NCBI GenBank assembly: GCA_964478715.1
Contig: CAYZIY010000007.1
Location: 20,220 to 84,219 of the forward strand
Direction of reading: 5' to 3'
Length of the DNA stretch: 64,000 nucleotides
Origin: an uncultured Planctomycetales bacterium
Lineage (GTDB): Bacteria; Omnitrophota; Gorgyraeia; Zapsychrales; JBDRMG01
Part shown: piece by piece, positions 20,827 through 53,960 of the stretch
Layout: each line of letters begins with the position of its first letter
Position numbering within the stretch: position 1 is the stretch's first letter
The notes under the pieces: generated by a model
Database searches by the model: none
Seen by the model: the letters and a program-made list of their open reading frames with translations, nothing else
What the model was told of the DNA's origin: nothing
Program-made: the position numbers and the translations under genes

Positions 20827-20833
20827 ATTTAAC

Positions 20834-21008: not shown

Positions 21009-21087
21009 ATCAAGAACGAACCCAGTTAACGGCTGAATCCATATCTTCAAAAATCTTCACGCGATTGGTGGTTTTAATCTTTTGACC

Positions 21088-34656: not shown

Positions 34657-35786
34657 CACAAGCCAATCAGCATCCCGAAGCCAAACAGTATCATGCGATC
34701 AAAAACCGTCTGTTTTTTGTTCATTTAGGCCTTAATGTCTTATTTCTTGTTCTATTTTTCTTAAGCGGTTTTAGTGAACAAATTCGCTCAATGGCTTTTG
34801 GTTTGAGCAACAATTATTATTTGGGTAATGCGATTTATTTGATGGGTTTCTTTGCCATCCTTTTACTCATCAATCTTCCTTTAGATATCTATGAGGGATT
34901 TTTTCTGGAACATCGCTACCAGCTTTCTAACCAGGCTTTTTTATCCTGGTCAATCGATGAAATGAAAAAGGCCCTTTTAAGCGGCCTGATTATGTTGATT
35001 GCCATTGAAGTTGTATATTTCTTCCTACGAGCTTTTCCCAATCAGTGGTGGCTGTTAGCGACTTTTTTCTGGCTTTTCTTTAGCTTGATTCTGGCCCGTT
35101 TGGTGCCCACTGTTATTCTTCCTCTGTTTTACAAATATAAAGATTTCGACAATGCGCAAATTAAGGGGCGCATTATCAGTCTTTTTCAGAAAGTCGGTCT
35201 GAAGCTGAAAGATATCTATCTTATCGATTTCTCATCCAAGACAAAGAAGGTTAATGCCATGGTCTGCGGCCTGGGGCGCAATCGGCGGGTTATTTTAACC
35301 GATAATCTTTTAAATCTCTTCAGCGACGGAGAGATTGAGAGCATTGTGGCTCATGAAATGGGTCATTATGTTCACAAGGATATCATCAAATTAACAGCTT
35401 TTAATACATTGTTGACCTTTGGCAGTTTTTATCTGATGAATTTGGTTTTAAAACATACATTGAAATTTACACATATCAGTTCTGTCGATGATATTGCCTT
35501 TTTGCCTGTCATGGCCCTGGTTTTTCTTCTGTTTAGTTTTCTGATGATGCCGCTAGCCAATGCTTTCAGCCGTTTTCTGGAAGAGCAGGCCGATCGGTAT
35601 TCTCTTTTCTTGACGCAGAATGCGAAAGATTTCATGGCGGCCTTTGAGAAGCTGGGAGAGATGAATTTATCTGAATTCCAGCCCTCGGCCTTGGTAGAAA
35701 TGCTGTTTTATGACCACCCCCCGCTATCTAAGCGAATCCAAATGTGCCGGAAATTTCAGAATCAAGCATTGCATCCGAATTTATGA
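34653..35786 (+). CDS. M48-family (Ste24/HtpX-like) integral-membrane zinc metalloprotease
   Basis: Multi-TM with HEMGHYVHKD (HExxH) and downstream E in LEEQADRYS. Confidence 0.8.
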   Translation: MTQANQHPEAKQYHAIKNRLFFVHLGLNVLFLVLFFLSGFSEQIRSMAFGLSNNYYLGNAIYLMGFFAILLLINLPLDIYEGFFLEHRYQLSNQAFLSWSIDEMKKALLSGLIMLIAIEVVYFFLRAFPNQWWLLATFFWLFFSLILARLVPTVILPLFYKYKDFDNAQIKGRIISLFQKVGLKLKDIYLIDFSSKTKKVNAMVCGLGRNRRVILTDNLLNLFSDGEIESIVAHEMGHYVHKDIIKLTAFNTLLTFGSFYLMNLVLKHTLKFTHISSVDDIAFLPVMALVFLLFSFLMMPLANAFSRFLEEQADRYSLFLTQNAKDFMAAFEKLGEMNLSEFQPSALVEMLFYDHPPLSKRIQMCRKFQNQALHPNL

Positions 35787-37786
35787 ATCGCTTAAAGCAA
35801 AAAGTTGAGAATGAAAAAAGACGCTATCTGCGGCTTGCGCATGTTTATCCTGTGGAATTTGCTTTTTGCAATTTGCAGGGCCAACTCATTTCTTCCTGGC
35901 AGCAGGGTTTTACCTGCAATATCAGTCAGGGCGGTATTTGTCTTAATGCGCAGGCCAGTTCTCTGGTAGTCGATCATCTAAAGGAAGAAAAAGAGCGTTA
36001 TCTTCGGCTCAAGATCAGTATTCCGCTTTTCTCTCCGCCGGTTGAGGCATTTTCTAAGGTTGCCTGGATGGCTCAGCAGACTGAATCTTATCCGAGAGGA
36101 TTTCTTATCGGTCTGCAGTTTTTGGAGATCCAGAAATCGCAAGCTAGACGGATGCTTAGATATGCGCGGATTATTAAACGCACGCCTCTGGTGATGGCCG
36201 CATTTATCTGTATTTTGTTTACTTTTCTAGCCGGGCATACCTACATGAATTATCGTCTGCGGATAAGTAATGAAGAACTGGTTCAGCAGTTTGTGTTCTT
36301 GCAAAGCGACCAGACGAAAAACCAGAACCGCCTGAAGACCATTCAAGGTGAGAAAACACTTCTGGCAGAAACCATCAATGATTATAATGCTGATATTCGC
36401 GATCTCAAGCGGGGGCTTGATCGCGCTCTTGGCGAAATTAATAGAAAGACACAGAACCAGAAAGTATTGCGCGATCAAGCCAATCAGCTGACACGAACTA
36501 TCGCCGAGCTTCAAACCAGGATTCAGCTTTTGGAGAGTGAAAAGGCCCCTTTAGCCAATCAGCTTGAGATTCTTGTGAAAAACGAAGAAATGATCCAGGA
36601 CCGATTAAGACTCATGGAAAGAAATAAGCGGGACTTAGAGAATGAAATTGTTGCCCAGATGATTCAGTGGCTTAAAAATCATCAAAATCAGTCGACTGGA
36701 CTGATTTCGAGTTTCGAGGGGCCGGTCGGTATCATCAAGCATTGGGCTTTTATTTACGATCAGGCCCTGGCCGCGAATGTCTTTCTTATTGATAATGATC
36801 TTAAGGCTTGCAAAAAGATTCTCAATTTCTTTGCCCGGAAAATGCAAAACGATTTTAATGGTTTTCATAATGCCTATTACAGCGATACTGAAGATATTGC
36901 CGAATTTACGATTCACAGCGGTCCCAATATTTGGGCTGGCATGGCTATTGCCCAGTATGCGGATCAAACAGGAGATCGCCAGTATTTGCCTTTGGCGCAA
37001 AAGATTGCCGATTGGCTTATTGCTTTACAGGAACAGGATAAAGACGGAGGTTTACGCGGAGGACCGGACGTTTTCTGGTATGCAACTGAGCATAATCTAG
37101 ATGCCTATGCTTTTCTTGACATGATGGCGAAGCTGACCGGTGAGGAAAAATATTATTTGGCCCAGAAAAAGATTTTGAGCTGGCTTGAAAAACATGCCAT
37201 GGTGGCTCATGAAAACGATCACCGCAAGCCGCCGGTAAAAAGAGGCCGCGGAGACGCCACAATCGCCACCGACACATTTGCCTGGTCCCTGGCTGCGATC
37301 GGCCCTCCCGTCTTGAGACAATTACAGATGGATCCTGAGGCGATCATGGCATTTGCCGAAAAACACTGCAAAGTCCAAACAAGATTTCGCCGACCCAGCG
37401 GAGTAGTTATTGATGTAGAAGGTTTTGATTTTTCCAAACCGGCTCATGTGGCTCGCGGTGGCATTCTTTCTCCGGAATGGACTTCTCAGATGATTGTCTC
37501 GTTTCAAATTTTGGCCGATGATTTCCAAAAGGAAAATGATTTAACCAAGACTGTTTTTTACCGTCAAAAAGCCGTCCACTATCTCAATGAACTCAATAAA
37601 CTGATTATATCGAGTCCTTCTCCGCGCGGGTTGGGTGAAGGATGTCTTCCTTATGCGACTGTCCCGCAGGCTGATACAGGTCACGGCTGGCGCACGCCCA
37701 AAGGGACAGATACCGGATCGATCGCTGGTACGGCCTATATGATTATGGCTATTTATGGCTACAATCCGTTGGAGCTGGGAGGCTAA
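35783..37786 (+). CDS. PilZ-domain / TM / coiled-coil / (alpha/alpha)6-barrel-like multidomain protein
   Basis: N-terminal RRYLRL...NISQGGICL (PilZ RxxxR and D/NxSxGG), a second PilZ-like half, a TM helix, about 150 aa of coiled coil, and a C-terminal region with six-hairpin-glycosidase-like composition. ATGA overlap with the M48 gene. Confidence 0.5.
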   Translation: MNRLKQKVENEKRRYLRLAHVYPVEFAFCNLQGQLISSWQQGFTCNISQGGICLNAQASSLVVDHLKEEKERYLRLKISIPLFSPPVEAFSKVAWMAQQTESYPRGFLIGLQFLEIQKSQARRMLRYARIIKRTPLVMAAFICILFTFLAGHTYMNYRLRISNEELVQQFVFLQSDQTKNQNRLKTIQGEKTLLAETINDYNADIRDLKRGLDRALGEINRKTQNQKVLRDQANQLTRTIAELQTRIQLLESEKAPLANQLEILVKNEEMIQDRLRLMERNKRDLENEIVAQMIQWLKNHQNQSTGLISSFEGPVGIIKHWAFIYDQALAANVFLIDNDLKACKKILNFFARKMQNDFNGFHNAYYSDTEDIAEFTIHSGPNIWAGMAIAQYADQTGDRQYLPLAQKIADWLIALQEQDKDGGLRGGPDVFWYATEHNLDAYAFLDMMAKLTGEEKYYLAQKKILSWLEKHAMVAHENDHRKPPVKRGRGDATIATDTFAWSLAAIGPPVLRQLQMDPEAIMAFAEKHCKVQTRFRRPSGVVIDVEGFDFSKPAHVARGGILSPEWTSQMIVSFQILADDFQKENDLTKTVFYRQKAVHYLNELNKLIISSPSPRGLGEGCLPYATVPQADTGHGWRTPKGTDTGSIAGTAYMIMAIYGYNPLELGG

Positions 37787-40606
37787 ATGCGAAAGAAGGA
37801 AATAACAGAAAATTTAACTATGTGTTTGTTTGCGATTTTTTTTCTGTCTAGCGCAAAACCTCTCATGGCCTTTGAGCATCCTGCTTATACAATCAAGGCC
37901 CAACTGGATGTCTCAAGCAAACAGCTTGAGGTTCAACAAAAGGTTCGTTTCAGTAATCAATCGGCTAGAGCAGTCGAAGCCATCTATTTCCATGTTTATC
38001 CCAACCGAATTTTCTCAAAGGCCGAAAAAGTTTTCATGCAGCAGTATGCCAGTTATTTCAAAGTTGATCCCTTTCCGGATGGTTTTCAGCAGGGAAAGGT
38101 GGTATTCGGTTCGATTTTCGCAGAAAACCGGAATCTAAACTTTTCTTACGAAGGCGAAGATCAAACGCTTCTGAAAGTCGAATTGGACCAAGTTCTGGCA
38201 CCCGGTTCATCCGTAGAGGTCAATATGGAATATCAGCTAAGAATTCCCCATTCCTACGGTCGTTTTGGCTGGCATAATGATATTATTGCTCTCTCGCGAT
38301 TTTATCCGATTTTAGCTGTTTTATCCGATGAGGGATGGAATAAAAATCCATTCTATCCCTTTCACCGGCCCTTTTATTCTGAAGCCGCTTATTATCAGGT
38401 GCAACTGACTATGCCGTCCTCATGGGAAGCGATTCATAGCGGGGTTCTCAAAAAAGAAAAACAAAACGGCGCCAATAAACAGCTCGTGATTGAATCGGAC
38501 CATCCTATTCGCGAATTTACTGTTGCGCTAAGCCCTGATTACCGTTTAATCGAAAAAAAAATTGAGGGTGTTACGGTGAAGTCGTTTTACCTTCCAGGTG
38601 ATCGAGACCGTGCCAGTGAGGCCCTTTCCCATGCCGCGGATCTTATGAAATTTTATGCGGATCTTTTCAAACCTTATCCTTATGCGCAATTTAGCATCGC
38701 GCCGGTTTATCTGGGTTATGGTGGAGAACAGATGTCCAATATGATCTTGATCGATACCCGGGTTTATCAACTCCCCAGAATTCTCGATCGCCATTTCGAA
38801 TTTTTGATTGCGCACGAAACCGGTCATCAATGGTTTTATAATCTGGTGGGGATTGACGAGTTTCATCACATGTGGCTGGAAGAAGGGGTCAATTCCTATT
38901 TTATTTTGCAATATCTCGAAGATAAATACGGAGACAATGCGAAAGTCATCGAATGGCCCAGGCCGCTTGAGTGGTTTCTGCCCAGTTTTTCTTTCCGGCG
39001 CGCTCGCGATTTCCGATATAAAATGATTGCCCGCACGAAGATGAATTATTCGCTCTCCGGAAAACTATCGAGCTTCAAAGAGCCCAGCAGTATTTTTTCG
39101 ATTGCTTATGGAAAAGGATCGGCGGTTGTGGCTATGCTCAAAAGCGTTGCGGGCAGAGAGGCTTTTAGGAAAATTTTCCAGAGAATTTTTAAGCAATATT
39201 CCTATAGGAATCTTAGCTTGAGAGAATTTCAAGATATCTGCCATCATGAAAGCCAAATAGATTTGGAATATTTCTTTGATCAATGGTTGACGACTACCCA
39301 TAACTGTGATTATGCGGTCAATGGCATCAAAGACGCGAAGGTATTGATTGAAAACAGAGCCTCAATCGAAATGCCGCTTGATGTAAGAATCGATTATCAG
39401 GACGGGAATTCAAAGACAATCCAAACCGGCTTTGATGATCAGGTCAAAAATGTATTTGTCAATCCGCGAAAAAAAATTAAGAGAATTATTCTGGATCCGC
39501 AAAAAGAAATCTTGGATATTGACCGTACCAATAATATTTGGCCGCGACGTATTCACATCAAGGTGGTGCCTTTGTATTTGCCTGTTCACGATTTAGCCAT
39601 CACGCTTCCCGAAGATTCTTATAATGTGGTGATCGGTCCTGAGACAAGCGGCGGCGGCTTAGGCTTAAAGGCCTCTTTGCAGAAACCCATGGACTGGATG
39701 AGTTATGCGGCGACAACGTATGAATTCCGTGAGAGCATCCAGCACACTCGAGGGGGCTTTGTGCTCAAGAATGTCGCCCATCAGATGAATTCTCTAGGAT
39801 TTGAACTATTCAATAAATCCGATTATGACGGCGGTGATCAGGATTTGGTCGGCGGGAAGGTTTTTTTCAGAAGAGAATTAAAACTGGCTGCCTATAGCCT
39901 GAGTGATCTCAATGATCATGTGAGCCTTTATTTTCTGCGCAATCAGAGCCTCAATCGCGGGGCCTTAAGCGCGCAGGAAGATGAGCGCAATATTTCTTAT
40001 TTGAAAAAGAATGAAGCGATTTGGGGTACGGCGCTTCATCTGGCTTCCTGTGGGCCTCATCCGGATCCGCGTCAGGGCTATCGGGCCGATCTTATTTTAG
40101 AGAACTCAAACCATATTCTGGGAGGCACACAGTTCTTTTACAGAGGATCGGCAGATTTCAGTTATTACTATCCGTTGGCATTTAAATCCAAGCTGGCTTT
40201 TCGTCTGAAATACGGCTGGGGGTTTCCCGACGATAAAAATCTCTATGAACTCGGAGGATGGGACGGGTTAAGAGGATATGACCGTAAGACTTTGCGCGGC
40301 TCGCATGTGGCCCTGGGCGCTTTAGAGCTTCGTTTTCCGCTTCTTCAGAATATCAATGTATCTTTTGCGGATAATATTTTGCGGCTGGATGAAATCTCGG
40401 GCGTTGTTTTTGCCGAGACCGGCCAGAATTGGTTTGATGATATGGATGAAACAACTTTAAGAAAAGATGCCGGCGGGGGACTGCGTTTTATTTTCAGTGT
40501 CGGTTCATTTCTTGAAAAAGTGATGGTTCGAGTGGATGTGGCCCAGGCGATTAATGACAGCAGCGAAGAGACAAAAGTGTGGGCTGGCGTGAATCATGCT
40601 TTCTAA
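37787..40606 (+). CDS. Secreted M1-family zinc aminopeptidase domain fused to a C-terminal Omp85/bacterial-surface-antigen beta-barrel
   Basis: Signal peptide. HETGHQWFYNLVGIDEFHHMWLEEG equals the gluzincin HExxH-x18-E with WLxEG. The C-terminal block YYPLAFKSKLAFRLKYGWGF...ELGGWDGLRGY...ALELRFPL matches the PF01103 barrel motifs. Confidence 0.6.
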   Translation: MRKKEITENLTMCLFAIFFLSSAKPLMAFEHPAYTIKAQLDVSSKQLEVQQKVRFSNQSARAVEAIYFHVYPNRIFSKAEKVFMQQYASYFKVDPFPDGFQQGKVVFGSIFAENRNLNFSYEGEDQTLLKVELDQVLAPGSSVEVNMEYQLRIPHSYGRFGWHNDIIALSRFYPILAVLSDEGWNKNPFYPFHRPFYSEAAYYQVQLTMPSSWEAIHSGVLKKEKQNGANKQLVIESDHPIREFTVALSPDYRLIEKKIEGVTVKSFYLPGDRDRASEALSHAADLMKFYADLFKPYPYAQFSIAPVYLGYGGEQMSNMILIDTRVYQLPRILDRHFEFLIAHETGHQWFYNLVGIDEFHHMWLEEGVNSYFILQYLEDKYGDNAKVIEWPRPLEWFLPSFSFRRARDFRYKMIARTKMNYSLSGKLSSFKEPSSIFSIAYGKGSAVVAMLKSVAGREAFRKIFQRIFKQYSYRNLSLREFQDICHHESQIDLEYFFDQWLTTTHNCDYAVNGIKDAKVLIENRASIEMPLDVRIDYQDGNSKTIQTGFDDQVKNVFVNPRKKIKRIILDPQKEILDIDRTNNIWPRRIHIKVVPLYLPVHDLAITLPEDSYNVVIGPETSGGGLGLKASLQKPMDWMSYAATTYEFRESIQHTRGGFVLKNVAHQMNSLGFELFNKSDYDGGDQDLVGGKVFFRRELKLAAYSLSDLNDHVSLYFLRNQSLNRGALSAQEDERNISYLKKNEAIWGTALHLASCGPHPDPRQGYRADLILENSNHILGGTQFFYRGSADFSYYYPLAFKSKLAFRLKYGWGFPDDKNLYELGGWDGLRGYDRKTLRGSHVALGALELRFPLLQNINVSFADNILRLDEISGVVFAETGQNWFDDMDETTLRKDAGGGLRFIFSVGSFLEKVMVRVDVAQAINDSSEETKVWAGVNHAF

Positions 40607-44054: not shown

Positions 44055-46916
44055 TTACATTTCTTTCGGTTGAGTTAAGAGAATTTCGTCATCCGGGGTC
44101 AGAGCCAGCGGGTGATAATCCCAGGTATTTCCGCTTAAGGCCGAGGCGGCCGTGGCATTTAACGGCAGTTCCACAGAAAGAATTTCCGAAATAAAAACAA
44201 GGTCTCCCGGAGGTCGGCTACTTGAGAGCAGATAGCTGATATCGTAAATTTTTCTCGGCTCGCCATTAAAACTCAGCAAATCCCAGGGGGCCGCTTCTGT
44301 GACACCAAACGCCGATTGTCCTGACTGATCACGTCCGCGAACCCAGTAGGCGGAATGCCCCGAAAAATTATCTATTAAATTCTGTGGTTCCGGTGACAAT
44401 GCGCTGAAAGGAATAGGATTCTCCGTATATGACTGGTCCCAGTATCTGCTGTTGGGCTCAATCGGGCCGTGAAGAGGCCGGAATTCATTACCCAGCTGGA
44501 TGAAAGATCCGGTAACAACAGGTTCATTTTGATGCCAGCAGGATAAAGGATCTCCGCCGCAAGGCGGGGTTAAGTGATCTCCGGGATCGCTGTGAAAATT
44601 CCAGAGTTCTTCGGTGACATGCGGATCCCAGGCTCTGGGCCCAATAAGAGAGATATTATAATTAATCACATTGTTGCCAGAACTGTCTTCAACGGTCCCC
44701 TCGACGAAATTGGGCATTTGCGGCTCATCGGGATTTTCATCATCCGGAAACATATCATAAAGATAATTGTAGCCATCCTGGCCGTTTTCATCAAAGGCAT
44801 AATCGGTCTCAAAACCGGATCCTTCCGGTAGAGTGATATAGACAGCTGAAGCGGGATTGATAGGAGAGACTACTGTTTCTGCGTAAGGATAGTCTGGATG
44901 ATGATGCGGCATGCGCAGATAGCGGGGATAGCGAAAGCCTTCGCTTACTAAAAAGACATCATCGCTGACAATGGCGGCCGAGGGTTTTCGGGCATTTGTA
45001 TTGTAATGACCTTCCAGAATCAGATCGCCATGGATGACGAAGGTGGCTCCGTTGGGGGCACCGTCTTTTTGAGGGAGTTCTCCGGCATTATACACGGCAG
45101 CACCGACGTAATACTGCCTTTGATCCCCTTCGGATTCGATAAATTGTACGTCAGAAATATATAGCCCGTTTTCAGGCAGCCAGTCTGAAGAATCATTGGC
45201 CGCGCAGTCTTTCAAGGCCGACATGTTTGTTCGCAAAACTGTCATGGGAAGCCCGTCGACATGCCGGATAAAACTGCGCAGTTCAAAAAGGCTCTCTTCG
45301 TCTGATCCGCATTCTATCGGGGGAGCAATGGACCGATTCTCATAAGGGTTGTCAAAATCGAAACGCAGATCCGTATCATCGGTAACGGGAATTCCGTTTA
45401 CGCTGACTTCGAGGTAATAAGTACCGTTTTTTTCTTTGGCTGCGGCCACAAAGGCCTGGTCCGAATTTTTATTGAGAATCGAGTTCAGATTCATTTCAGG
45501 CGGGCTGATGGTGCTGACATCATCCTGGAACACTCCGGCGAGTCCTTCAATTCTATAAGGGGTATCTTCTCCGGAAGGATAATTTCGATTGATGCTTTCA
45601 CTGAAGGCAAAAAATTCCGGTTGCTTTTCGGAATCTGTCAACTGCATGCCGGTCACCCGCGGATCGCCCGGCGCATGACGGCCCATATACATGAATCTGT
45701 CATTGTAAGCGGTGCCAAAACGATTGGGGAGATAATAGTCGTTGATCTTGGGCATCGCCTCGTAATAATTTTCGTTATTGGAAGTTCCGTCGGCGCAGGT
45801 ATTTGTTGAATGGCAATTGATATCCTGCTGCCAGTACACATAGGCCCGGCTTTCTGACGACCCGTCCCAGGCCCCCGCATCAAACGGTGGATTTAAAAAT
45901 GGTGTCTGCGGCCAGGGCCAGATTGGCAGATTGTTGGATTCTTGGTCCCATTCGACGAATTTGCCTGTAGCGGTATCAAAGGCCAGCAAGCCCTGTCTGT
46001 CACCGGCATAATGGCCGTCCATTTTATTGATATAGTTTTCCTGATCCCACAGCCATCTATCTAGTGTATCGTTAGGTAAAATCAGAGGTCGGCGCAGATG
46101 GGGATAGATATTTGTATAATCATGACTATCGACTGCTCCTCCGCTGACAGGATCATATACCTGGCCGTCGATAAAATCATCAGGATGGACAAAGGGCGAG
46201 AAGGCATAGGAAATCTTTCCGGTGGCCTTAAGCTCATCCACGTTTTCGATGATGGTGTAATCATTCAAAAGGATATTGCCGTTAGTGTGGATTTTTCCGC
46301 CCTGGGCGTTAAGCAGCTGCCATCCGAGAGAGAGGTCTTCGTTGTTAAACAGGGCATATTGAAACATATCGGTGATTTCTATTTTCATGGCAAAAAGGCG
46401 GGTCACCGTATTATGAATGCCCAGAGCCAGGACATAGAGAGCGTTCTCATTGTCTTTACAATATGTTTTTAGGGCAAAAAGAGGATGGCCGTTTTCATCC
46501 AGCGCTCCGTAGTCAATAGAATCAATACCCCGGCTCACCAAATAAGGGAAATCATCAGCCGATAACTGGTGGTTAAATACAATACCGGGGATGTCGGAAT
46601 CTGTCGGGCAATTATCAACACAATGTTCAAGCGCGTTATTTTCGGTATTGAGAATATGGGTGGTGAATTCACCTGTGGATATCGATGCATTATTTTTGAT
46701 TTCATGATAGGCGTATTCTACGCCTTTACGGGCATGCAATTCCGCGGCCAAACTGTCATGCAGGATATGCCCTTGATTATTGCCCGAGACAGCCCGGGCA
46801 AAATTGGCCGCGGCATAGGTGACCACCAGGATCAAGACAGGATACAAAACCAGCGAGAAGGCGATGCCTTTTTGATTCTTTTTTCTTTGATCTTTTTTTA
46901 AAATTATTTGGCTCAT
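44055..46916 (-). CDS. Giant (953 aa) secreted or pilus-associated protein with a TadE/TadG-like pseudopilin N-terminus. Paralogue of 49211-52015
   Basis: N-terminal KGIAFSLVLYPVLILVVTYAAANFARAV resembles the TadE-like anchor (RGAAAVEFALVLPVLLLLLFGIVEFG). Shared blocks with the paralogue include KIHTNGNILLNDYTIIENV...FVHPDD, ILEGHYNTN...SEGFRYPRYL..HHPDYPYAE and a C-terminal PWDLLSFN. Confidence 0.6.
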   Translation of the reverse strand: MSQIILKKDQRKKNQKGIAFSLVLYPVLILVVTYAAANFARAVSGNNQGHILHDSLAAELHARKGVEYAYHEIKNNASISTGEFTTHILNTENNALEHCVDNCPTDSDIPGIVFNHQLSADDFPYLVSRGIDSIDYGALDENGHPLFALKTYCKDNENALYVLALGIHNTVTRLFAMKIEITDMFQYALFNNEDLSLGWQLLNAQGGKIHTNGNILLNDYTIIENVDELKATGKISYAFSPFVHPDDFIDGQVYDPVSGGAVDSHDYTNIYPHLRRPLILPNDTLDRWLWDQENYINKMDGHYAGDRQGLLAFDTATGKFVEWDQESNNLPIWPWPQTPFLNPPFDAGAWDGSSESRAYVYWQQDINCHSTNTCADGTSNNENYYEAMPKINDYYLPNRFGTAYNDRFMYMGRHAPGDPRVTGMQLTDSEKQPEFFAFSESINRNYPSGEDTPYRIEGLAGVFQDDVSTISPPEMNLNSILNKNSDQAFVAAAKEKNGTYYLEVSVNGIPVTDDTDLRFDFDNPYENRSIAPPIECGSDEESLFELRSFIRHVDGLPMTVLRTNMSALKDCAANDSSDWLPENGLYISDVQFIESEGDQRQYYVGAAVYNAGELPQKDGAPNGATFVIHGDLILEGHYNTNARKPSAAIVSDDVFLVSEGFRYPRYLRMPHHHPDYPYAETVVSPINPASAVYITLPEGSGFETDYAFDENGQDGYNYLYDMFPDDENPDEPQMPNFVEGTVEDSSGNNVINYNISLIGPRAWDPHVTEELWNFHSDPGDHLTPPCGGDPLSCWHQNEPVVTGSFIQLGNEFRPLHGPIEPNSRYWDQSYTENPIPFSALSPEPQNLIDNFSGHSAYWVRGRDQSGQSAFGVTEAAPWDLLSFNGEPRKIYDISYLLSSSRPPGDLVFISEILSVELPLNATAASALSGNTWDYHPLALTPDDEILLTQPKEM

Positions 46917-46942
46917 GATTATTGCTCGTTTTGCTTACTTTA

Positions 46943-47812
46943 TCAGCGTATTTCTTTAGGCGCCGTTCGGCAGTCATCAGGGCAAGTTACTGATGTTTCA
47001 TCACCGCTGCAAATTCCGTCACCGCAGCGCGTGCAATCTTCCGGACAGCTTATGGCGGTTTCATCACCGTTACACATTTCGTCACCGCAATGTTGACAAT
47101 CTTGAGCACAATTGTCCGGGTCTTCATCAATGTCGCAGTTTCCATCGCCGCAAAAAGTTTGAGGCTCACAATCCGCGGGGCAGGTGGTTTCGCTCTCAGT
47201 GGCATCGCAGACGCCGTCACCGCAGACCACACACACGCCGCAGTCCTGAGGGCAGGAATAACAGTCTTCGGATTGGTCACATTTATCATTGCCGCAGAAC
47301 TCGCAAGTGGTCATATCTTGCTGACAGTTTTCGCAGGTTTCGTCGGGGTCTTCTATGCCGTTTCCGCAGTCCGGCAGTTCATCGCAGTCCTGGGGGCATT
47401 CTTCGAACGTTTCGCGGATATCGCATAGGCCGTTACCGCAGAGAATGGAGGTATAAATATTATCGATATCATTAAGCTGAACTTTTGTTTCGATGTTCAT
47501 GGCTCTGATAGAGGGATAAAGCTCTTGATCGGGTGTGATTTTGATGTGCACCGTCTGGTTACTCAAGTTTCGGGTTACTTCCAGAGAATCAGCCACACCC
47601 AGAGTGCGCCACGAGCGGATTTCGGGGTCAGGAACCTCATCCGCGCCGGTTTGCATCCCGCCGCCAGGTTGGCCGCCTCCGGGGAGGCTATCCGCCCAAG
47701 ATGTCGCCGATGCGAGGCTTATGCAAAACCAAACGATTAAAAAGAAAAAGACGCTAAAAAAGGAAAGATTTTTTGCTAGGATGTTTATCTTGAATGTTTT
47801 CATTGAGAGCAT
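46943..47812 (-). CDS. Secreted cysteine-rich repeat protein with about 7 tandem CGDGxC-x8-10-CPxDC modules
   Basis: Signal peptide MKTFKINILAKNLSFFSVFFFLIVWFCISLASA. Repeats include CGNGLCDIRETFEECPQDC, CGDGVCDATESETTCPADC, CGDGNCDIDEDPDNCAQDC and CGDGICSGDETSVTCPDDC. The ORF-track N-terminal extension into the upstream gene is probably spurious, so the start is uncertain (47812 or 47803). Confidence 0.55.
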   Translation of the reverse strand: MLSMKTFKINILAKNLSFFSVFFFLIVWFCISLASATSWADSLPGGGQPGGGMQTGADEVPDPEIRSWRTLGVADSLEVTRNLSNQTVHIKITPDQELYPSIRAMNIETKVQLNDIDNIYTSILCGNGLCDIRETFEECPQDCDELPDCGNGIEDPDETCENCQQDMTTCEFCGNDKCDQSEDCYSCPQDCGVCVVCGDGVCDATESETTCPADCEPQTFCGDGNCDIDEDPDNCAQDCQHCGDEMCNGDETAISCPEDCTRCGDGICSGDETSVTCPDDCRTAPKEIR

Positions 47813-47819
47813 GTTCTTT

Positions 47820-48905
47820 CTATTTTTCATTATTTTCTGGACCCTCATTATGGACAATAATCCCATCGGCGATATACGTATGCAGAGGATTGACGACAAA
47901 ATTATAGCTTGTAACTGTTTCATGAATTTCGTCGATCGAATTAATGCGAAAGTCACGGCCTTGTTCATCGGTCAGAAAGTCTCCTATCCGCAAAGTGTCC
48001 AACCGCACATAACGGCCCCGGCTTAAGACCGGATGATTAGGAGAGACTTTGATCGAATCATTGATGATCCAGTATTTATGAGTATTATTGTGCGACAGGG
48101 TGCCTGTGACACGGTCGGGTTGAAATTTTTGACTGGAAGCATCGAAGGCCAGAACGATATCCCCGACAGCGATATTTTCAATTGGCTTGGTGGATCCCCC
48201 GGCCATCGTGATTTTGGTCCCGGCCAGAAAACAGTTTCCGGCGCCGCAGGTTCCACAGTCGGCGCTGCACGAGCAGGCGGTCTCTCCGGCCTCACCACAG
48301 CAGACCCCATCCCCGCAGACAATTGCCCCGCACTCCGCGCAATTGCACACACTTTCTCCTCGGGTGGATTCACAGACCCCGTCACCGCAGCAATCGGTGC
48401 CGGTGGCTATATAATCTTCCTCGCACCAGGAGCAGTCTTCACCAAGATCCACATCTACTTTGCCGTCTCCGCAGAAATCTTCGTAACAAAGCACCCGCTC
48501 TATCAATTGCCCGTCGGTTGCGCCGCCGGAAGCCACATAATATTCATAATAACAACCGATATCATTAAGCGCGCCGAATTTAATATTGTCGTATTCATTA
48601 ATATAGCTTTCGCCGACTTTGGTGGGAATTTTAAAGCGGATCAGATGGCCCGAGCACGGGGGAGAATCCAATTCGTCACAGTTTTTGATGGTAACCATTT
48701 TGATATCCGATTGGCTAAGTATATTGGCCATACGCCCGACCGCATTACGGGCATCGGAGACCTGCTGAATAGCTTCATCCGCGATCTTGTAGCTTTCGCG
48801 TGTTTGAATCAAGGATGTGGCAAAGGCCCCGCCGATGATCACCAGAATAGTCATCACGGCCAGGATCTCAGTCAGGGTAAAGGCGTTTATTCTAAAGATT
48901 TTCAT
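47820..48905 (-). CDS. Type IV pilin/pseudopilin-like protein with extracellular Cys-rich repeats and a C-terminal Hint (bacterial intein-like) domain
   Basis: MKIFRINA-FTLTEILAVMTILVIIGG is a class III signal with Glu at +5. Repeats CGDGKVDVDLGEDCSWC, CGDGVCESTRGESVCNCAEC, CGDGVCCGEAGETACSCSADC. Hint block CFLAGTKITMAGG...IAVGDIVLAFD...VSPNHPVL...HTYIADGIIVHN ending in HN then E. Confidence 0.65.
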   Translation of the reverse strand: MKIFRINAFTLTEILAVMTILVIIGGAFATSLIQTRESYKIADEAIQQVSDARNAVGRMANILSQSDIKMVTIKNCDELDSPPCSGHLIRFKIPTKVGESYINEYDNIKFGALNDIGCYYEYYVASGGATDGQLIERVLCYEDFCGDGKVDVDLGEDCSWCEEDYIATGTDCCGDGVCESTRGESVCNCAECGAIVCGDGVCCGEAGETACSCSADCGTCGAGNCFLAGTKITMAGGSTKPIENIAVGDIVLAFDASSQKFQPDRVTGTLSHNNTHKYWIINDSIKVSPNHPVLSRGRYVRLDTLRIGDFLTDEQGRDFRINSIDEIHETVTSYNFVVNPLHTYIADGIIVHNEGPENNEK

Positions 48906-49107
48906 TGCCGGCTCCTAAACAAAAAACCCATCCGCAAAGGATGGGTTTTAAAGAGTTGACAGTATGTTGGCGGCCAGGCTGTCTCACCGATTAAATCGGC
49001 GGACCCTATAGCTTTGCGTCCTATCCTTGCGGATTCCGCTGAAAACTTAAGCGGATCTACCGTTGTTAGCGGCGGAAGTTTACCTTTATCAGCATCTAAT
49101 AGTACTC
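48906..49107 (-). promoter_or_regulatory. Conserved structured 5' leader RNA (copy 1) with a terminator-like hairpin abutting the RBS. Candidate riboswitch or attenuator
   Basis: Minus-strand reading: ...GCGGAATCCGCAAGGATAGGACGCAAAGCTATAGGGTCC...GCCAACATA...AAAACCCATCC-TTTGC-GGATGGGTTTTTTGTTT-AGGAGCCGGCA-ATG. Homologous to copy 2 (53659-53916) with compensatory stem changes. Confidence 0.45.
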
Positions 49108-49150
49108 TAGGATAAGTATAACACATAGATATGTCCCGACAAGAAGAGCA
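49108..49150 (-). promoter_or_regulatory. Sigma70-like promoter (TTGTCG, 18 nt, TGTGTTATACT extended -10) driving leader copy 1
   Basis: The -35, spacer and extended -10 arrangement is conserved with copy 2 (TTGTCC, 17 nt, TGTGTTATACT). Confidence 0.4.
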
Positions 49151-49210
49151 TACCAAAAATGGGAGTGAAAAGGAAGCGTTTTTCTAAAAACTACTTCTAA
49201 AAACTGCCTT

Positions 49211-52015
49211 TTATGTGGGGGGTTCGTATTTATTTCTCCAATGATCAGAAGTCCATGCAATTTCCACTACCCTTGATCGCAAACCCAGCATCTCTCCGGG
49301 AGGGTAGATCGGATCCGCAAGCCCTTCCCGGCGCAGATAATCCTGATCGTATTCATGGGCCGGCTGGGGATTGCTGGCCAAAAGGTCCCAGGGAGTCGAT
49401 TTATTATCTGTAGCCCGGCAAGGATGGGGATCCTTATCGGAGTTCCATCCAATCTGGGTATCTAAGTCAGAAAAGGGAATGGCAAAGTTCTTGTAAGAAT
49501 TCTGGTTGCAATCTCGGTTGTTGGCCGTCGTGGGAACCAGGCCGACAGGAGGAAACTCATTACCCAGTTGAATGACCGAGCCGATAATAACCGGCTGGAT
49601 TTCCGTCCAGCTGGAAGGGTCGGGAGCATTAAGGAGATCTCCAAGTTCTGTATAATAAGACCAGCGTTCCAAGAGATCAGGGTCAGGGGCATATTTTCCG
49701 ATCAAAGAGACATTATACACATAAGAATTCGGAGTTTCGGGGTCATTATCATGATCGACTGGGCCGATCGTATCCTGATCGGATTCCCAGGGTACTTTGT
49801 TTGCCATATTGCCATCTTGTTCTGCGAGCCAGTTGGCAACGCCTGGAATAAAATCGGCACGGAAACCATGTCCATCCTGGTTAAACTCTTCAAAATCCAT
49901 TCCACTTAATTCTGCTTCGGGATAGGACGGATGATGCTGGGGCCACGTTAATTTCCGGGGATAATCAAAATCTTCGGAAACTAAAGAGATTCTATTGGAG
50001 GCAATGATGGCTGCCGATTGCTTGGTCCAATCAGCATAGCCAGCATCAGCCTCATGGACATAATTGACATGGCCTTCCAAAATGGCATTATTGGCAATAA
50101 CGGTTAGTCCTCCTTGGGGCAATTGCCGCGCGTTGTAGAGCGCTACTCCGATCGGCTTGTCCGTGACCTGTGGAGAGTCTGCGGCAATAATGATCCCGCT
50201 CGAAGGCAGAAAATTTGGCTGTCCGCCTTCAGGAGGATTAACGACGCCAAATTGATGACAGCGATTTAAGTGTTCGATATTCATGCGAATCGTATTCTCG
50301 GGCAGTCCCGATTTGGGATTGATGAATTCTTTTTTTTCAAAGAGAGTGTCATTTATATCTTCGGAGCAATTTAGATCTGCGCAGCATCTTTCGTTTTTCA
50401 TCCATGAAGTCGTATCGTTTAATTTGATACTATTATTTCCCACATTGATAATATATTCTTTAAGCGCGCTTTCTTCAATCTCTTGCTCGATAGTCATTTG
50501 AATTTGTCCCGCACTGTGGCTGGATGAGTCACTTGAACTGTTGATTGTCTTTAAGGTATCAAGATGTATTTGGGGCACGGTGATTTCTTCAACACCGTCT
50601 GTGCTGTCCTTGAGCACATTAATTTGATCTTCCACAACGGCTGCCAGGCCTGTGATGGTGTCGTCTAAGGGATTATCCGGATCATCGCCTTGATCTATTT
50701 CAATGGGAAAATGGGACACATAATTATCCCAGTCCGACTCTTGATCAACAGAGTCGGTTAACCGGACAGGGGCTGTAAGATTACGTCCGTAATAAACTTC
50801 TTTATCATAGGGGGAGGAATCCGGCAGGATACTGGGAATAAAGTAACCGTTGATCTTGACATTGGCTTCATAATAGTTGGCATTATTATTTCCGTAAGGA
50901 TCTTGCCAGGCGCATGTATTTGTTTCATAACAACTGAGATCTTGTTCCCAATAGGAATTAACGAGGGTATTATGCCATTCAGGTTTATTATTAATCCAGC
51001 TTCCTTCATACCACATATTTTGATCACCCCAAGCAGGATCCCATATATAAGGAGAAGTGTCTTCCGGCACAGGTGCCGTGAAATTCGTATCCCAATAAAA
51101 AGGCCAGACGGGTTGCTTAATGTCCTGTGTTATTGTCTCTCCCTTCCAGGGGATAATACCATTTGTTGACATACGAAAAAGCCCCCGACGCATCCCTGGA
51201 TAATGGCCGTCCATGCTGTTGACATAATTGCCTTGGTTTAGTCCCACAGGAACCACTTCACCGCCCGAATAGGTTAAGTCATTCGGGTTAACGTGCGGCC
51301 AACGTCTGGTCTGATACTTGTTTTTATCATCCGGGTGGACAAAAGGTGTCATTTCCCATTCAAATTTTCCTGCTGTTGATATTTCACTGACATTTTCGAT
51401 TTCCACAAAATCATTGAATTTAATTTTCCCGTTGGCGTGGATTTTCGCCTGGCCGGCATTGATTTTTTTCCATCCGAAATCCGCATCATTCGAGTAAAAG
51501 GCCAGATAATCAAAAAGAGGCGTTCCTTTTATGATCCCCACAAAAAGACGGGTTTGGCCTTCTCTGTTGGTTTCTGCGAAACTGGTTGATTTCACTAGCG
51601 CATAATAGGCCCCGTCTTCCATGTAGACTTTAGCTTGGAAAATACTTCCCGTTTCTTCGTCACGAACCTGATACACATAGTCTTCGTTTTTATTAATCTG
51701 GGCGTCGGGAACATACAAATCAGCGGTGGCCGGCGGGTCATCGTGGGGGGCCAATGTGTCAGTCCCTGCTGCGATTTTGTGTGTCAGAAACGGATTACTG
51801 GTATATTGCCGGGCGGCAATTTCGGCAAAGACATATTCCACGCCGCTCATGGCGGTCATCTCGGTTTGATTGCGGGTATAAATCCGCCGGAAATGACGGG
51901 TATTATGCGTAGATTGCACAAAAACCGTTATTCCGTATCCTGCCAGCAGAATCAACAGAGGCAGGACAATCACATTCATGAGAAATTGTCCGTTTTTGTT
52001 TGAAATGCGTATCAT
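49211..52015 (-). CDS. Giant (934 aa) secreted or pilus-associated protein with a TadE/TadG-like N-terminus. Paralogue of 44055-46916
   Basis: N-terminal NGQFLMNVIVLPLLILLAGYGITVF (TadE-like). Conserved blocks as listed for the paralogue. RBS AGGGAGA upstream. Confidence 0.6.
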   Translation of the reverse strand: MIRISNKNGQFLMNVIVLPLLILLAGYGITVFVQSTHNTRHFRRIYTRNQTEMTAMSGVEYVFAEIAARQYTSNPFLTHKIAAGTDTLAPHDDPPATADLYVPDAQINKNEDYVYQVRDEETGSIFQAKVYMEDGAYYALVKSTSFAETNREGQTRLFVGIIKGTPLFDYLAFYSNDADFGWKKINAGQAKIHANGKIKFNDFVEIENVSEISTAGKFEWEMTPFVHPDDKNKYQTRRWPHVNPNDLTYSGGEVVPVGLNQGNYVNSMDGHYPGMRRGLFRMSTNGIIPWKGETITQDIKQPVWPFYWDTNFTAPVPEDTSPYIWDPAWGDQNMWYEGSWINNKPEWHNTLVNSYWEQDLSCYETNTCAWQDPYGNNNANYYEANVKINGYFIPSILPDSSPYDKEVYYGRNLTAPVRLTDSVDQESDWDNYVSHFPIEIDQGDDPDNPLDDTITGLAAVVEDQINVLKDSTDGVEEITVPQIHLDTLKTINSSSDSSSHSAGQIQMTIEQEIEESALKEYIINVGNNSIKLNDTTSWMKNERCCADLNCSEDINDTLFEKKEFINPKSGLPENTIRMNIEHLNRCHQFGVVNPPEGGQPNFLPSSGIIIAADSPQVTDKPIGVALYNARQLPQGGLTVIANNAILEGHVNYVHEADAGYADWTKQSAAIIASNRISLVSEDFDYPRKLTWPQHHPSYPEAELSGMDFEEFNQDGHGFRADFIPGVANWLAEQDGNMANKVPWESDQDTIGPVDHDNDPETPNSYVYNVSLIGKYAPDPDLLERWSYYTELGDLLNAPDPSSWTEIQPVIIGSVIQLGNEFPPVGLVPTTANNRDCNQNSYKNFAIPFSDLDTQIGWNSDKDPHPCRATDNKSTPWDLLASNPQPAHEYDQDYLRREGLADPIYPPGEMLGLRSRVVEIAWTSDHWRNKYEPPT

Positions 52016-52054
52016 GAGTTATTTTTCTCCCTCTCGAGATTGATCCTAATTACT

Positions 52055-52783
52055 TCATTCGGGTTCTCCCCAGTTATTGAATTCACAATTAAGTTCTTGT
52101 CCGCCTTCGGCTACATAGATCGACAAATCAACAAGGTCTGATATGTTGATTCCGTATTCATTACCTCCGCTACCTGAATTATTAACATTGGCGCGCTCGG
52201 GGTCTTCGGGAGGCGGGCAGATTGTATTTGGTGGCTCTGTTTCAGTACAGGCATCACTGCCTTCAGCACAACAGTTGGGCAGATCACCAAACATATAAGC
52301 GGATAATAAATCTAGGTCCGCTTTATTGACTATTCCGTCTCCGGTGAGCTCTCCGCATTCCGGGGCCGGCGGGCAGTCTTGAGCGCACCATTGCGAATTT
52401 TCGCTGGGGGGATCGCAAAAACCATCCCCGCAGACGGTAATGGTCAGAGGATCCGAGTCATTATCCGGATAAACAGTGGTGCTGAGCTTAATTTCCCCGC
52501 CTGATGGATAAGAGGAAGAGCTTATCTCCGGTTGAGCGGCGTAGAAACCGATCTGGACTGTTTTTGGGATATAGGTTGTGGAAAAAGTACCCTTTTCGAT
52601 GCGGCTGGCGATTACCTGAGAGGAGCGCACGGTTTCGACTGGTTGGGCGTAGGCAATTTGACCGCCTATAAGGAAAATCCAAAAAAAGACAGTTATCCCG
52701 ACAACCATCACAAATAGCATACTGAGAAAGGGCCTAATCTCATTTAACGTTTTTACATTAGGATAATCCATTAATCTAATCAT
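52055..52783 (-). CDS. Signal-anchored small protein with one Cys-rich repeat and a dockerin-like calcium-binding repeat pair
   Basis: TM anchor FLSMLFVMVVGITVFFWIFLIGG. CGDGFCDPPSENSQWCAQDC repeat. TGDGIVNKADLDLLSAYMFG and NNSGSGGNEYGINISDLVDLSIYV fit the dockerin D-x-D/N-x-DG-x-V/I-N-x2-D-x3-L-x2-Y pattern. Strong RBS AAAGGAG. Confidence 0.55.
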   Translation of the reverse strand: MIRLMDYPNVKTLNEIRPFLSMLFVMVVGITVFFWIFLIGGQIAYAQPVETVRSSQVIASRIEKGTFSTTYIPKTVQIGFYAAQPEISSSSYPSGGEIKLSTTVYPDNDSDPLTITVCGDGFCDPPSENSQWCAQDCPPAPECGELTGDGIVNKADLDLLSAYMFGDLPNCCAEGSDACTETEPPNTICPPPEDPERANVNNSGSGGNEYGINISDLVDLSIYVAEGGQELNCEFNNWGEPE

Positions 52784-52815
52784 CGCACGACTCCTTTTAT
52801 GGTTTTCTTTCTGTC

Positions 52816-53658
52816 CTATCTGTCCACGGGGGTCTCTCCGGTATCACAGTCGGCTGCGCAGGAAGAAACCGTTTCTCCGATACTGGCATCGCAAAAGCGG
52901 TCACCGCACCAGCCGAAATTCTCTTGTGCGGCCGCGACCTGATTTTCGCAGATACCGCAGTCGGCCGGACATTTTAAGCAATCTTCATGGATATCACAGA
53001 ATCCGTTCGGGCAGCAGACACCTCCGCAATCCTCAGGGCAGGACAGGCAGTTTTCTCCCAAATCCTCTTCAGGGTTGGGACCGCCAGTTTCCGGAATGCC
53101 GTCTTGGCAGATTCGGTCGCCGCAGGTACAGCGGTCTTCGCAATCAGGAAAACAGGTGTCGCAGTCTTCGCCGTAGTCTTCATTACAAGTACCATCGCCG
53201 CAATAGGGCTGGCTTTCATCGCAAATAACCTGTTTGTAGAGTTGATTGTCATTGACCAAGTATCTGTACCAGCAATATTGGTAACATTCATTCTCAGAAA
53301 TACAAGCGCCGAAAGCGACTCGGCCGTCATTGATTTCTAATGTATCCACAATAGGAGTTTTGAAGATTAAATAACTTCCTTGACAGACCGGCTCTCCCTC
53401 TTCGGGGCATGGATGGTGAACCGGAGCGCCCGGTTTATTGCTCTGGGGGGGCACCGACTGCTGAACATGGGCAGCGACACGCTGTAAAATATTTTCCAGA
53501 TGAATATTTTGATCGCTGCGGATTTTCGATATAATCGACGCCTGCATTCCTTTTTGCGCGGCAGCCGAAATCCCGCCGATGACAATGACCGAAGCCGCGA
53601 TGGAGACGACAAGCTCGGTTAGCGTAAATGCTTCTTTATTTTTTGTGTATCTTTTCAT
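52816..53658 (-). CDS. Type IV pilin/pseudopilin-like protein with 4 extracellular Cys-rich repeats
   Basis: MKRYTKNKEA-FTLTELVVSIAASVIVIGG prepilin-type N-terminus. Repeats CGDGTCNEDYGEDCDTCFPDC, CGDRICQDG...CLSCPEDC, CPNGFCDIHEDCLKCPADC, CGDRFCDASIGETVSSCAADC. The ORF-track start at 53712 would translate through the leader hairpin. The ATG at 53658 has RBS GGGAGAAG. Confidence 0.6.
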   Translation of the reverse strand: MKRYTKNKEAFTLTELVVSIAASVIVIGGISAAAQKGMQASIISKIRSDQNIHLENILQRVAAHVQQSVPPQSNKPGAPVHHPCPEEGEPVCQGSYLIFKTPIVDTLEINDGRVAFGACISENECYQYCWYRYLVNDNQLYKQVICDESQPYCGDGTCNEDYGEDCDTCFPDCEDRCTCGDRICQDGIPETGGPNPEEDLGENCLSCPEDCGGVCCPNGFCDIHEDCLKCPADCGICENQVAAAQENFGWCGDRFCDASIGETVSSCAADCDTGETPVDR

Positions 53659-53916
53659 GTCTTCTCCCAATTTCTGTTGTAACCGAAAAAAATCCCACTC
53701 CTTAAACTTCAAGGAATGGGTTTATCCGTTTTGTTGGCAGCTGGCTGCCCCTCTGCTTTCTTGCCTGCCTTTCAGAAAACAAGCGAAAACAAGAAGCGGG
53801 GTCCTTTAGCTTTGTGCCCCATCCTTGCGGTCCCGCGTGGGTTTCTCGCGGGATCTCCGGTCTCAAAGGATTGCAGGCCGGAGAATAGTTTACCTTTTTC
53901 AACACCAATGAATTGT
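53659..53916 (-). promoter_or_regulatory. Conserved structured 5' leader RNA (copy 2) with a terminator-like hairpin abutting the RBS
   Basis: Minus-strand reading: ...CCCGCGAGAAACCCACGCGGGACCGCAAGGATGGGGCACAAAGCTAAAGGACCCC...GCCAACAAA...AAACCCATTCCTT-GAAGTTT-AAGGAGTGGGATTTTTTT-CGG...GGGAGAAGAC-ATG. Confidence 0.45.
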
Positions 53917-53960
53917 TAATAAAAGTATAACACATTTTTTCTTGCGGACAATTCAGCATC
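53917..53960 (-). promoter_or_regulatory. Sigma70-like promoter (TTGTCC, 17 nt, TGTGTTATACT) driving leader copy 2
   Basis: Same architecture as the 49108-49150 promoter. Confidence 0.4.

Follow-up and report, generated by a model that had tools for sequence, protein, structure and literature searches.

The window analysed here, a stretch of 64,000 nucleotides from an uncultured Planctomycetales bacterium that GTDB places in the Omnitrophota (assembly GCA_964478715.1, contig CAYZIY010000007.1), encodes two giant proteins, giant A and giant B, each within a small gene cassette. We propose that both are tip pilins of the GspK/PilX/ComZ class that would cap a type IV filament, and we put the probability of this reading at about 75%. 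The filament is most likely a type 4a pilus, and nearly all Omnitrophota encode type 4a pili (PMC10066038). A preliminary description of the same DNA had viewed the proteins as TadE/TadG-like pseudopilins, that is, as members of a different pilus family.

The giant proteins and their family

The two open reading frames (ORFs) exist exactly as first described, with 934 amino acids (aa) for giant A (49211-52015, minus strand) and 953 aa for giant B (44055-46916, minus strand), and both begin with ATG. They align from end to end in BLASTP (E 8e-87, 296/1009 identities, 29%), and MAFFT gave 36% identity over aligned residues. This similarity is well beyond chance, and the giants are full-length paralogues. 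Where at least five long conserved blocks had been claimed, we found at least seven (BLASTP; 1-70, 155-230, 261-280, 355-394, 623-702, 767-823 and 875-910 in giant A numbering), with variable, indel-rich stretches in between. Neither giant matched a Pfam or NCBIfam family (E <= 1) or a PADLOC family (E <= 0.1), which agrees with the earlier remark that no catalytic motifs are recognisable. As PADLOC gave no defence-system match, a defence role for the giants was dropped.

With an exhaustive HMMER profile search over 1.84e9 cluster representatives we obtained 69 proteins at E <= 1e-3, 21 of them at E <= 1e-30. Family members are nearly all 730-1030 aa long, and none of the 54 that were aligned matched a Pfam family at E <= 0.01. 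Those with names are called 'hypothetical protein [Candidatus Omnitrophota bacterium]', every named source organism is Candidatus Omnitrophota, and the family is restricted to this phylum as far as sources are named. All family clusters that we looked up were singletons. A word-indexed homology search, run with a single protein and with a 54-sequence profile, found the query alone; the other giant of the window (pairwise E 8e-87) and all 68 relatives that HMMER recovered afterwards escaped it. When a protein evolves fast and is ordinary in composition, an empty result from a word-indexed search should not be taken as evidence that it is an orphan. A single giant protein as query likewise found no relative in the genome collection.

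Related loci (numbered L002, L003 and so on) were collected from 185,579 species genomes with the neighbouring PAC2 gene as synteny anchor. The closest loci were all from Omnitrophota, with PAC2 identities of at most 50%, and included the complete genome of Ca. Velamenicoccus archaeovorus (L011, NZ_CP019384.1), which has kept the flanking genes and has no cassette. When all fetched loci were searched with the family hidden Markov model (HMM), members were confined to one sub-lineage and usually lay between PAC2 and Era (L003/L007, L006, L086, L088 and L002). L003, L006 and L086 carry one cassette each, the window and L002 two. Pairwise identities between family members range from 22 to 46%. 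In the tree, giant A groups with the members P0003, P0006, P0004 and P0005, while giant B is sister to that group; a phylogeny across related genomes had been proposed as a check. From these identities and this grouping we conclude that the duplication is old and the family fast-evolving.

The N-termini of the giants carry the first line of evidence for a pilin. Giant A starts with the basic leader MIRISNKNG followed by QFLMNVIVLPLLILLAGYGITVF, and giant B with a basic leader ending in KKNQKG followed by IAFSLVLYPVLILVVTYAAANF. Both second segments are hydrophobic over about 22 residues, with a Pro about 9-10 residues into the helix (VLPLL and LYPVL). Motif counts were taken over 50 family members. 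Their leaders are mostly 7-15 residues long, K/N-rich and end in N-K-G, and position -1 is Gly in 49 members and Ala in one. Position +1 is F/V/I/Q/Y, +2 is L/A, +3 is Leu in 43 of the 50, +4 is I/S/L and +6 is T/S/V. At +5 we found L/S/T/G/F/I/N/V and not a single Glu. A hydrophobic stretch of about 20-22 residues follows the conserved Gly, and after it comes a conserved amphipathic segment, S-I-x-E-N ... A-x-Y-x-A-E-x-G-x-E-Y-A-x-x-E-I ... W-x-T-H. That is, the family has the basic leader, the Gly at -1 and the hydrophobic alpha1 helix of a class III prepilin-type signal, with cleavage predicted, and it lacks the Glu at position 5 (Glu5), as do GspK and PilX. By sequence, the N-terminal layout of the giants is the GspK/PilX-type pseudopilin pattern.

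No Flp-type G/x-x-x-x-E-Y/F processing motif was found in the giants, as the preliminary description had stated, or among the 50 members. The TadE HMM (PF07811), which had been recommended as a check, gave no match on the first 80-87 residues of both giants at E <= 10, and Tad (PF13400) gave none either; the same holds for either whole giant (E <= 1) and for 54 full-length members (E <= 0.01). In a search of 41 N-termini at E <= 10, TadE and Tad were absent among the 25 listed of 38 matching families. PilX_N (PF14341) was the only Pfam family matched repeatedly (7 of the 41, best E 0.002, sub-threshold), and ComGE and archaeal Pilin_N appeared as single weak matches. PF03934 (T2SSK) matched neither giants nor family members, so the relation to GspK/PilX is, at sequence level, a resemblance without Pfam membership. 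An hhalign alignment of the N-termini of the giants with those of the cassette prepilins placed Gly(-1) on -1, Leu+3 on Leu3 and +5 on Glu5. Since TadE similarity is absent, the TadE/TadG family assignment fails, and what had been called a TadE/TadG-like anchor stands as a pseudopilin-type segment that lacks the canonical Glu. The pseudopilin idea itself survives because the N-termini differ from ordinary Sec signal peptides, and the bodies of the giants match no enzyme family.

The predicted structure agrees with a pilin. AlphaFold was unusable with a two-sequence alignment (predicted local distance difference test score, pLDDT, 26) and reached a pLDDT of 81.7 and a predicted template modelling (pTM) score of 0.85 with the 54-member alignment. 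The model comprises a helix (7-68), a sheet (79-166) and then short solenoid-like strands, the remainder being mostly beta. ComZ and GspK were the best structural matches of the predicted fold, which points to a pilin domain with an ice-binding-like beta-solenoid: the model has the long alpha1 on an antiparallel sheet of a GspK-like pilin, and a triangular solenoid like that of ice-binding proteins is attached to it. Together these two parts account for about 270-290 residues of giant A. A conserved C-terminal strand (910-919) in the model is compatible with a solenoid inserted between the last two strands of the pilin sheet, without being proof of it. The structure prediction that had been suggested for the bodies of the giants thus yielded a predicted beta-solenoid of the ice-binding type, and about 600 residues that match no solved structure. 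At the level of sequence, profiles A1 and A2 did not match ComZ among PDB sequences, and the whole-family profile touched only the N-terminal helix of geopilin (E 0.2).

Cassettes, partner pilins and leaders

Two three-gene cassettes, each with its own leader, stand in tandem on the minus strand, and a giant closes each of them. The features, in the order of transcription, are:

53924-53951, minus strand: promoter-like site of cassette A (TTGTCC, 16 nucleotides, TG-TATACT), consensus match only
53732-53903, minus strand: GEMM-I (c-di-GMP-I clan) riboswitch-like aptamer in the leader of cassette A
53694-53720, minus strand: terminator-like hairpin A, 12-bp stem then AUUUUUUU, between aptamer A and the pilin A start
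52816-53657, minus strand: cassette A gene 1 (pilin A), prepilin-type (MKRYTKNKEA/FTLTELV...), with Cys-rich CGDGxC...DC repeats
52055-52783, minus strand: cassette A gene 2, 242 aa, with an N-terminal signal or anchor, one CGDGFCD...DC repeat and two dockerin-like loops
49211-52015, minus strand: giant A, putative GspK/PilX/ComZ-class tip pseudopilin, predicted beta-solenoid and about 600 further residues
49115-49142, minus strand: promoter-like site of cassette B (TTGTCG, 16 nucleotides, TG-TATACT), consensus match only
48966-49094, minus strand: c-di-GMP-I (GEMM-I) aptamer, as predicted, in the leader of cassette B
48923-48949, minus strand: terminator-like hairpin B, 11-bp stem then UUGUUU, between aptamer B and the pilin B start
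47820-48905, minus strand: cassette B gene 1 (pilin B), prepilin-type (MKIFRINA/FTLTEIL...), with Cys-rich repeats and a C-terminal HINT domain (residues 225-353)
46943-47830, minus strand: cassette B gene 2, secreted Cys-rich repeat protein, start chosen by inspection
44055-46916, minus strand: giant B, paralogue of giant A

All three gene pairs are homologous between the cassettes (gene 1 E 1e-19, gene 2 E 1e-6, gene 3 E 8e-87), so the whole cassette was duplicated. The prepilin is a constant companion of the giant: in every related locus with enough flank, a Glu5 prepilin lies directly upstream of it. The N-terminal motifs of these prepilins are:

L003: KKIG/ITLVELL
L006: SG/FTLAELL
L002: NKS/FTLAETL
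L086: NRG/MTLLELI

At L087 two family members each stand beside two small Glu5 pseudopilins (KRG/FTLIEVL, KSG/FTFMELL, NRG/FTLVEVL and RTG/FTTVEVM), with a T2SSE-family ATPase near by. By arrangement and size only, each member and its two pseudopilins can be read as a trio of the GspI/J/K or PilV/W/X kind. Giants are therefore encoded with Glu5-bearing minor pilins in both cassettes of the window and at L002, L003, L006, L086 and L087. The partners are of the type 4a pilus/type II secretion system (T2SS) type with a (G/A)/FTLxE motif, not of the Flp/Tad type. Neither the scanned ORFs of the window nor the genes called at L002, L003, L005, L086, L087 and L088 included any of the tad families looked for (tadV, rcpA, tadZABC, flp).

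Pilin A starts with an ATG at 53657 behind GGGAGAAG and shares 31% identity with pilin B (E 1e-19). It matches N_methyl (PF07963) below threshold (E 0.0057), and the weak sub-threshold matches of its N-terminus are to type IV pilin models without exception. Pilin B matches PT-HINT (PF07591, E 8.9e-13), N_methyl (E 0.023), TIGR02599 (E 5e-5) and IV_pilin_GFxxxE (E 0.01). Its HINT domain sits at the extreme C-terminus, from Cys225 (...GNC/FLAGTKI) to ...IVHNE, with no C-extein after it; this suggests autoproteolytic maturation or transfer chemistry. A literature search on pilin-HINT fusions found no paper describing one. Judged by eye, a similar C-terminal domain occurs at L006 in the pilin (8392-9471, minus strand) and in the secreted partner (7381-8346, minus strand).

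Gene 2 of cassette A has no Pfam match and is weakly similar to gene 2 of cassette B (E 1e-6), with Cys repeats common to both. The ORF of the latter extends to 47968, and the likely start is Met47 (47830) or Met54 (47809), before a Sec-type signal peptide. In cassette A, the gene 2 product contains the dockerin-like calcium-binding loops GDGIVNKADLDLLSAYMFG and NISDLVDLSIYVAEG (residues about 145-165 and 195-225); Pfam Dockerin_1 gave weak matches only in relatives, at L002 (7669-8418) and L005 (20567-21493, minus strand). The Cys-rich repeats (CGDGxCxxxExxxxCxxDC, about 20-25 residues) are shuffled among all three cassette proteins; at L002 they are appended to the C-termini of the giants P0003 and P0006. 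In the window they occupy 52816-53300, 52055-52480, 46943-47500 and 47820-48400, all on the minus strand, and they have no Pfam match at E <= 1. The cassettes of the window can thus be described as an elaborated version, in which the pilin is enlarged by Cys-rich repeats with or without HINT and a secreted non-pilin partner is added.

Both cassettes are preceded by riboswitch-like leaders. Aptamer B lies within the 305-nucleotide gap between giant A and pilin B and scored 35.3 bits with RF01051 in a whole-window scan (gathering score 35) and 34.5 bits with RF03167 in a local scan (E 1.5e-6). By sequence criteria, cassette B has the score, the 5' leader position and the expression platform of RF01051 (clan CL00126), whereas for cassette A the score is below threshold. 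Hairpin A is part of the minimum free energy fold of its leader (z = -4.4), and hairpin B is likewise part of the minimum free energy fold of its own. In the sub-lineage closest to the window, every cassette has a GEMM-I aptamer in its 5' leader: aptamers also stand directly upstream of the first cassette gene in three relatives, each followed by a terminator-like hairpin (RF03167 scores; gathering score 59):

L002, 793-876, plus strand: orthologous GEMM-I aptamer, 55.4 bits
L006, 9580-9667, minus strand: orthologous GEMM-I aptamer, 53 bits
L003, 1935-1994, plus strand: orthologous GEMM-I aptamer, 36.9 bits

These relatives score best on RF03167, the 'GGC' variant model. The five leaders (A, B, L002, L003 and L006) can be aligned and have in common an extended -10 box (TGTGnTATACT), the aptamer core and the terminator; the window aptamers have an insertion of about 50 nucleotides in one hairpin. 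The more distant cassettes L086, L087, L088 and L005 lack this leader aptamer. At L005, the dockerin-like protein (20567-21493, minus strand) lies behind two tandem GEMM-I aptamers (21594-21906, minus strand). GEMM-I RNAs sense cyclic di-GMP (c-di-GMP), rare variants cyclic AMP-GMP (c-AMP-GMP), and the genes under their control are for motility and biofilms (PMC7266159).

Both window aptamers contain a segment (CAAGGAUAGG and CAAGGAUGGGG) complementary to the terminator's 5' arm, which would suggest an antiterminator and thus a switch of the OFF type; since the complementarity is poor in L002, we did not adopt this direction. An 84-aa ORF with a TTG start (48902-49156, minus strand) overlaps aptamer B and promoter-like site B and is probably spurious, not a gene. 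Six kb from the cassettes, at 35744-37786 on the plus strand, the window encodes a 680-aa protein with an N-terminal PilZ domain (E 1.9e-7). PilZ is a c-di-GMP receptor domain, and a functional link between this protein and the cassettes is possible.

The cassette region (44055-53960) forms a minus-strand insertion between Era and PAC2 in plus-strand housekeeping DNA. On the upstream side lie an M1-peptidase/Omp85 fusion, YjbQ, PfkB, a DHH phosphoesterase and Era, and on the downstream side PAC2, NnrE and endonuclease III, all on the plus strand. The fusion (37787-40606, plus strand) is an unusual 939-aa protein that combines an M1 aminopeptidase (HExxH) with a C-terminal Omp85/BamA-like barrel, and it is kept in L003 (10053-12875). 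Elsewhere in the window we noted a fusion protein that joins an RNase T/DEDDh exonuclease to a WYL domain (27973-28791, plus strand; E 1.9e-34 and 1.3e-14) and a V/A-type ATPase operon (12050-20826, plus strand; A and B subunits 14921-18005, I-subunit-like protein 18588-20354). WYL domains act as regulators that sense ligands, and they are frequent neighbours of defence systems.

The tip-pilin reading and its alternatives

If the giants are tip pilins, a PilD-type prepilin peptidase would cut each of them after the conserved Gly. The giant would then occupy the distal-most position of the priming complex, because it has no Glu5 and is sterically bulky, the arguments used for GspK, PilX and ComZ. 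The Glu5-bearing Cys-rich pilin, encoded two genes upstream, would dock under it, and a type IV pilus machine encoded elsewhere would polymerise the major pilin below. The bulky solenoid head would thereby reach the pilus tip and serve as fibre cap and as adhesin or receptor-binding module, the two cassettes providing two alternative tips. Transcription of each cassette would start at its own promoter and run through a GEMM-I-type riboswitch that has an intrinsic terminator, so that a cyclic-dinucleotide second messenger would govern expression. An unusually large adhesin displayed on the pilus, as envisaged in the preliminary description, would still be the most plausible role, although we consider the chances even that adhesion is the specific function of the giants.

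Several observations weigh against this proposal. On the giants, PilX_N, T2SSK and N_methyl all stay below their curated thresholds, and the hhalign alignment of the N-termini of giants and prepilins is weak (probability 34%, E 4e-4). The beta-rich remainder of about 600 residues has no structural relative. Gene 2 of the cassettes is not a pilin, unlike in canonical minor-pilin operons. The scanned ORFs of the 64-kb window include neither a prepilin peptidase nor a major pilin nor a gene for a pilus motor, so the filament system has to be inferred. Aptamer A scores below the gathering score (RF03167 31.2 bits versus 59; E 1.7e-5, 501-nucleotide local scan), and aptamer B exceeds it by 0.3 bit only.

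The low scores of the curated pilin models and the large part of the protein without structural relative would suit bitopic inner-membrane or secreted surface proteins that have an uncleaved signal anchor or an ordinary Sec signal at the N-terminus, are not part of any filament and whose link to pilins is incidental. We see a slim chance of this, for a near-invariant Gly at fixed distance and the conserved continuation of alpha1 (A-x-Y-x-A-E-x-G-x-E-Y-A) are not features of Sec signals, and the adjacency to a Glu5 prepilin is kept in every locus with enough flank. Another idea is that the giants belong to a Tad (Flp) pilus as TadE/TadG-type pseudopilins, oversized TadG adhesins that a TadV-type peptidase would process. 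Tad systems occur in many Omnitrophota (PMC10066038), and by eye the basic leader, the Gly and the hydrophobic helix with its Pro resemble TadG N-termini. Yet the partner pilins are of type 4a/T2SS type, neither the window nor the inspected related loci contain tad genes, TadE and Tad matched at no threshold tried whereas PilX_N was the recurring weak match, and ComZ and GspK are the best structural matches; we therefore give this explanation very little credence.

Two further alternatives retain a tip pilin and differ in what the tip would do. As the GspK equivalent of a type II secretion pseudopilus, the giant would be a piston or gatekeeper head for secretion. This appears very unlikely: with about 900 residues, the head would greatly exceed GspK in bulk (280 residues in 3ci0_K), such solenoid pilins have been argued to find room nowhere but at the end of an extended fibre (PMC6561018), the window has no gsp genes, and T2SSE-family ATPases such as that at L087 power type IV pili as well. 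Alternatively, the giants could cap a competence pilus as ComZ-like receptors that bind extracellular DNA rather than a cell or surface. This reading has the same fold class as ours and is not distinguishable from it in function here. We nevertheless regard it as unlikely, given that the giants have no sequence similarity to ComZ and are about 400 residues longer, that no com genes are nearby, and that the Cys-rich, dockerin-like and HINT-bearing partners, the cyclic-dinucleotide-type riboswitch and the duplication with 30-46% identity between members would fit adhesion or recognition better than generic DNA binding.

Three known protein groups were rejected. The PilY1/PilC tip adhesins (beta-propeller PF05567, usually with an N-terminal vWA domain and a Sec signal) gave no match. 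HpsA membership was discarded because NCBIfam, including its Hps models, has no match on the giants. The giants also match nothing of the Verru_Chthon cassette (TIGR02596, TIGR02598-02600), whose cut-offs were not reached; the N-terminus of one partner pilin scored 22.7 bits with Verru_Chthon protein C against a cut-off of 256.5 (E 5e-5), and one related pilin reached E 9.4e-6.

Among described systems, the closest counterpart of the predicted tip pilins is ComZ of Thermus thermophilus (PDB 6QVI), in which a GspK-like pilin domain is joined to an ice-binding-like solenoid and which has been argued to sit at the tip (PMC6561018). It shares with the modelled giants the N-terminal hydrophobic helix, the GspK-like pilin domain and the large triangular beta-solenoid; it too is encoded beside a partner pilin and missed by standard pilin predictors. 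The giants differ in having no detectable sequence similarity to it, about 400 more residues, parts without structural match and a home in another phylum, and their partner pilin has Cys-rich repeats and sometimes HINT, in a cassette that is duplicated and appears riboswitch-controlled. All cyanobacterial PilX proteins have a solenoid as in ComZ, lack Glu5 and pair with PilV; in the EPS/HpsA-like subfamily, extended solenoids and extra domains of unknown function come with a dedicated PilV (bioRxiv 10.64898/2026.02.12.705559). Like the giants, PilX-Com and PilX-EPS/HpsA-like proteins have been proposed to cap or 'plug' the tip complex where PilY1 is lacking, and pair obligately with a specific minor pilin in several paralogous sets per genome. 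In contrast, the giants match no NCBIfam Hps or Pfam model, are restricted to Omnitrophota as far as sources are named, have other partners and appear to be under GEMM-I control.

With GspK/XcpX of the T2SS and PilX of type 4a pili, the giants share the prepilin-type leader, the Gly at -1, the missing Glu5, the weak PilX_N matches and the trio at L087. However, they are three to five times larger, a predicted solenoid replaces the alpha-helical insertion of GspK, PF03934 does not match and PF14341 stays sub-threshold. The likeness to TadG/TadE is confined to a generic layout, a basic leader followed by a hydrophobic helix, while an HMM match, the Flp-type motif and tad neighbours are missing and the partner pilins are of T4a/T2SS type. 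In Streptococcus sanguinis PilB (vWA) and PilC, a functional module grafted on a pilin module makes the filament adhesive (PMC8179133). The grafting principle would hold for the giants as well as for their partner pilins with Cys-rich repeats and HINT, with a solenoid, Cys-rich repeats and HINT in place of vWA or lectin and with no sequence relation.

Meaning for the Omnitrophota

The combination of a pilin with a solenoid tip is already known from Thermus and cyanobacteria and is not categorically new. What is new is a sequence family without a model in the libraries searched, the size of its members, about 600 residues without structural relative and the phylum. To this come the Cys-rich pilin with HINT, the dockerin-like secreted protein, the apparent GEMM-I control and the tandem duplication.

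The Omnitrophota, uncultured and for the most part ultra-small, are regarded as predators, parasites or symbionts. A more far-reaching version of our proposal, which we consider doubtful, would make the cassettes interchangeable 'warheads', gated by a cyclic dinucleotide, with which ultra-small, host-dependent Omnitrophota would arm their type IV pili. A solenoid tip of ~900 residues, its fold class unsolved beyond the first ~300, would recognise the surface of host or prey, and the Cys-rich pilin (in some genomes also the secreted partner) would be matured or covalently coupled by its C-terminal HINT domain, while duplication and rapid divergence would give rise to alternative host specificities. 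We know of no pilin for which HINT autoprocessing chemistry has been described.

Only a few conserved 'symbiosis' traits have been reported for Omnitrophota, and type IV pili are one of them (PMC10066038). If the tip-pilin reading is true, the family described here would form the tip of Omnitrophota pili and thereby determine their specificity, and an unannotated family would gain a structural and functional hypothesis. The design of ComZ and cyanobacterial PilX would then reach a third, distant phylum, which would support solenoid tip pilins as a widespread alternative to PilY1. The GEMM-I link would connect second-messenger signalling directly and testably to the choice of tip module, and the pilin-HINT fusion is a separate lead for protein chemistry on pili.

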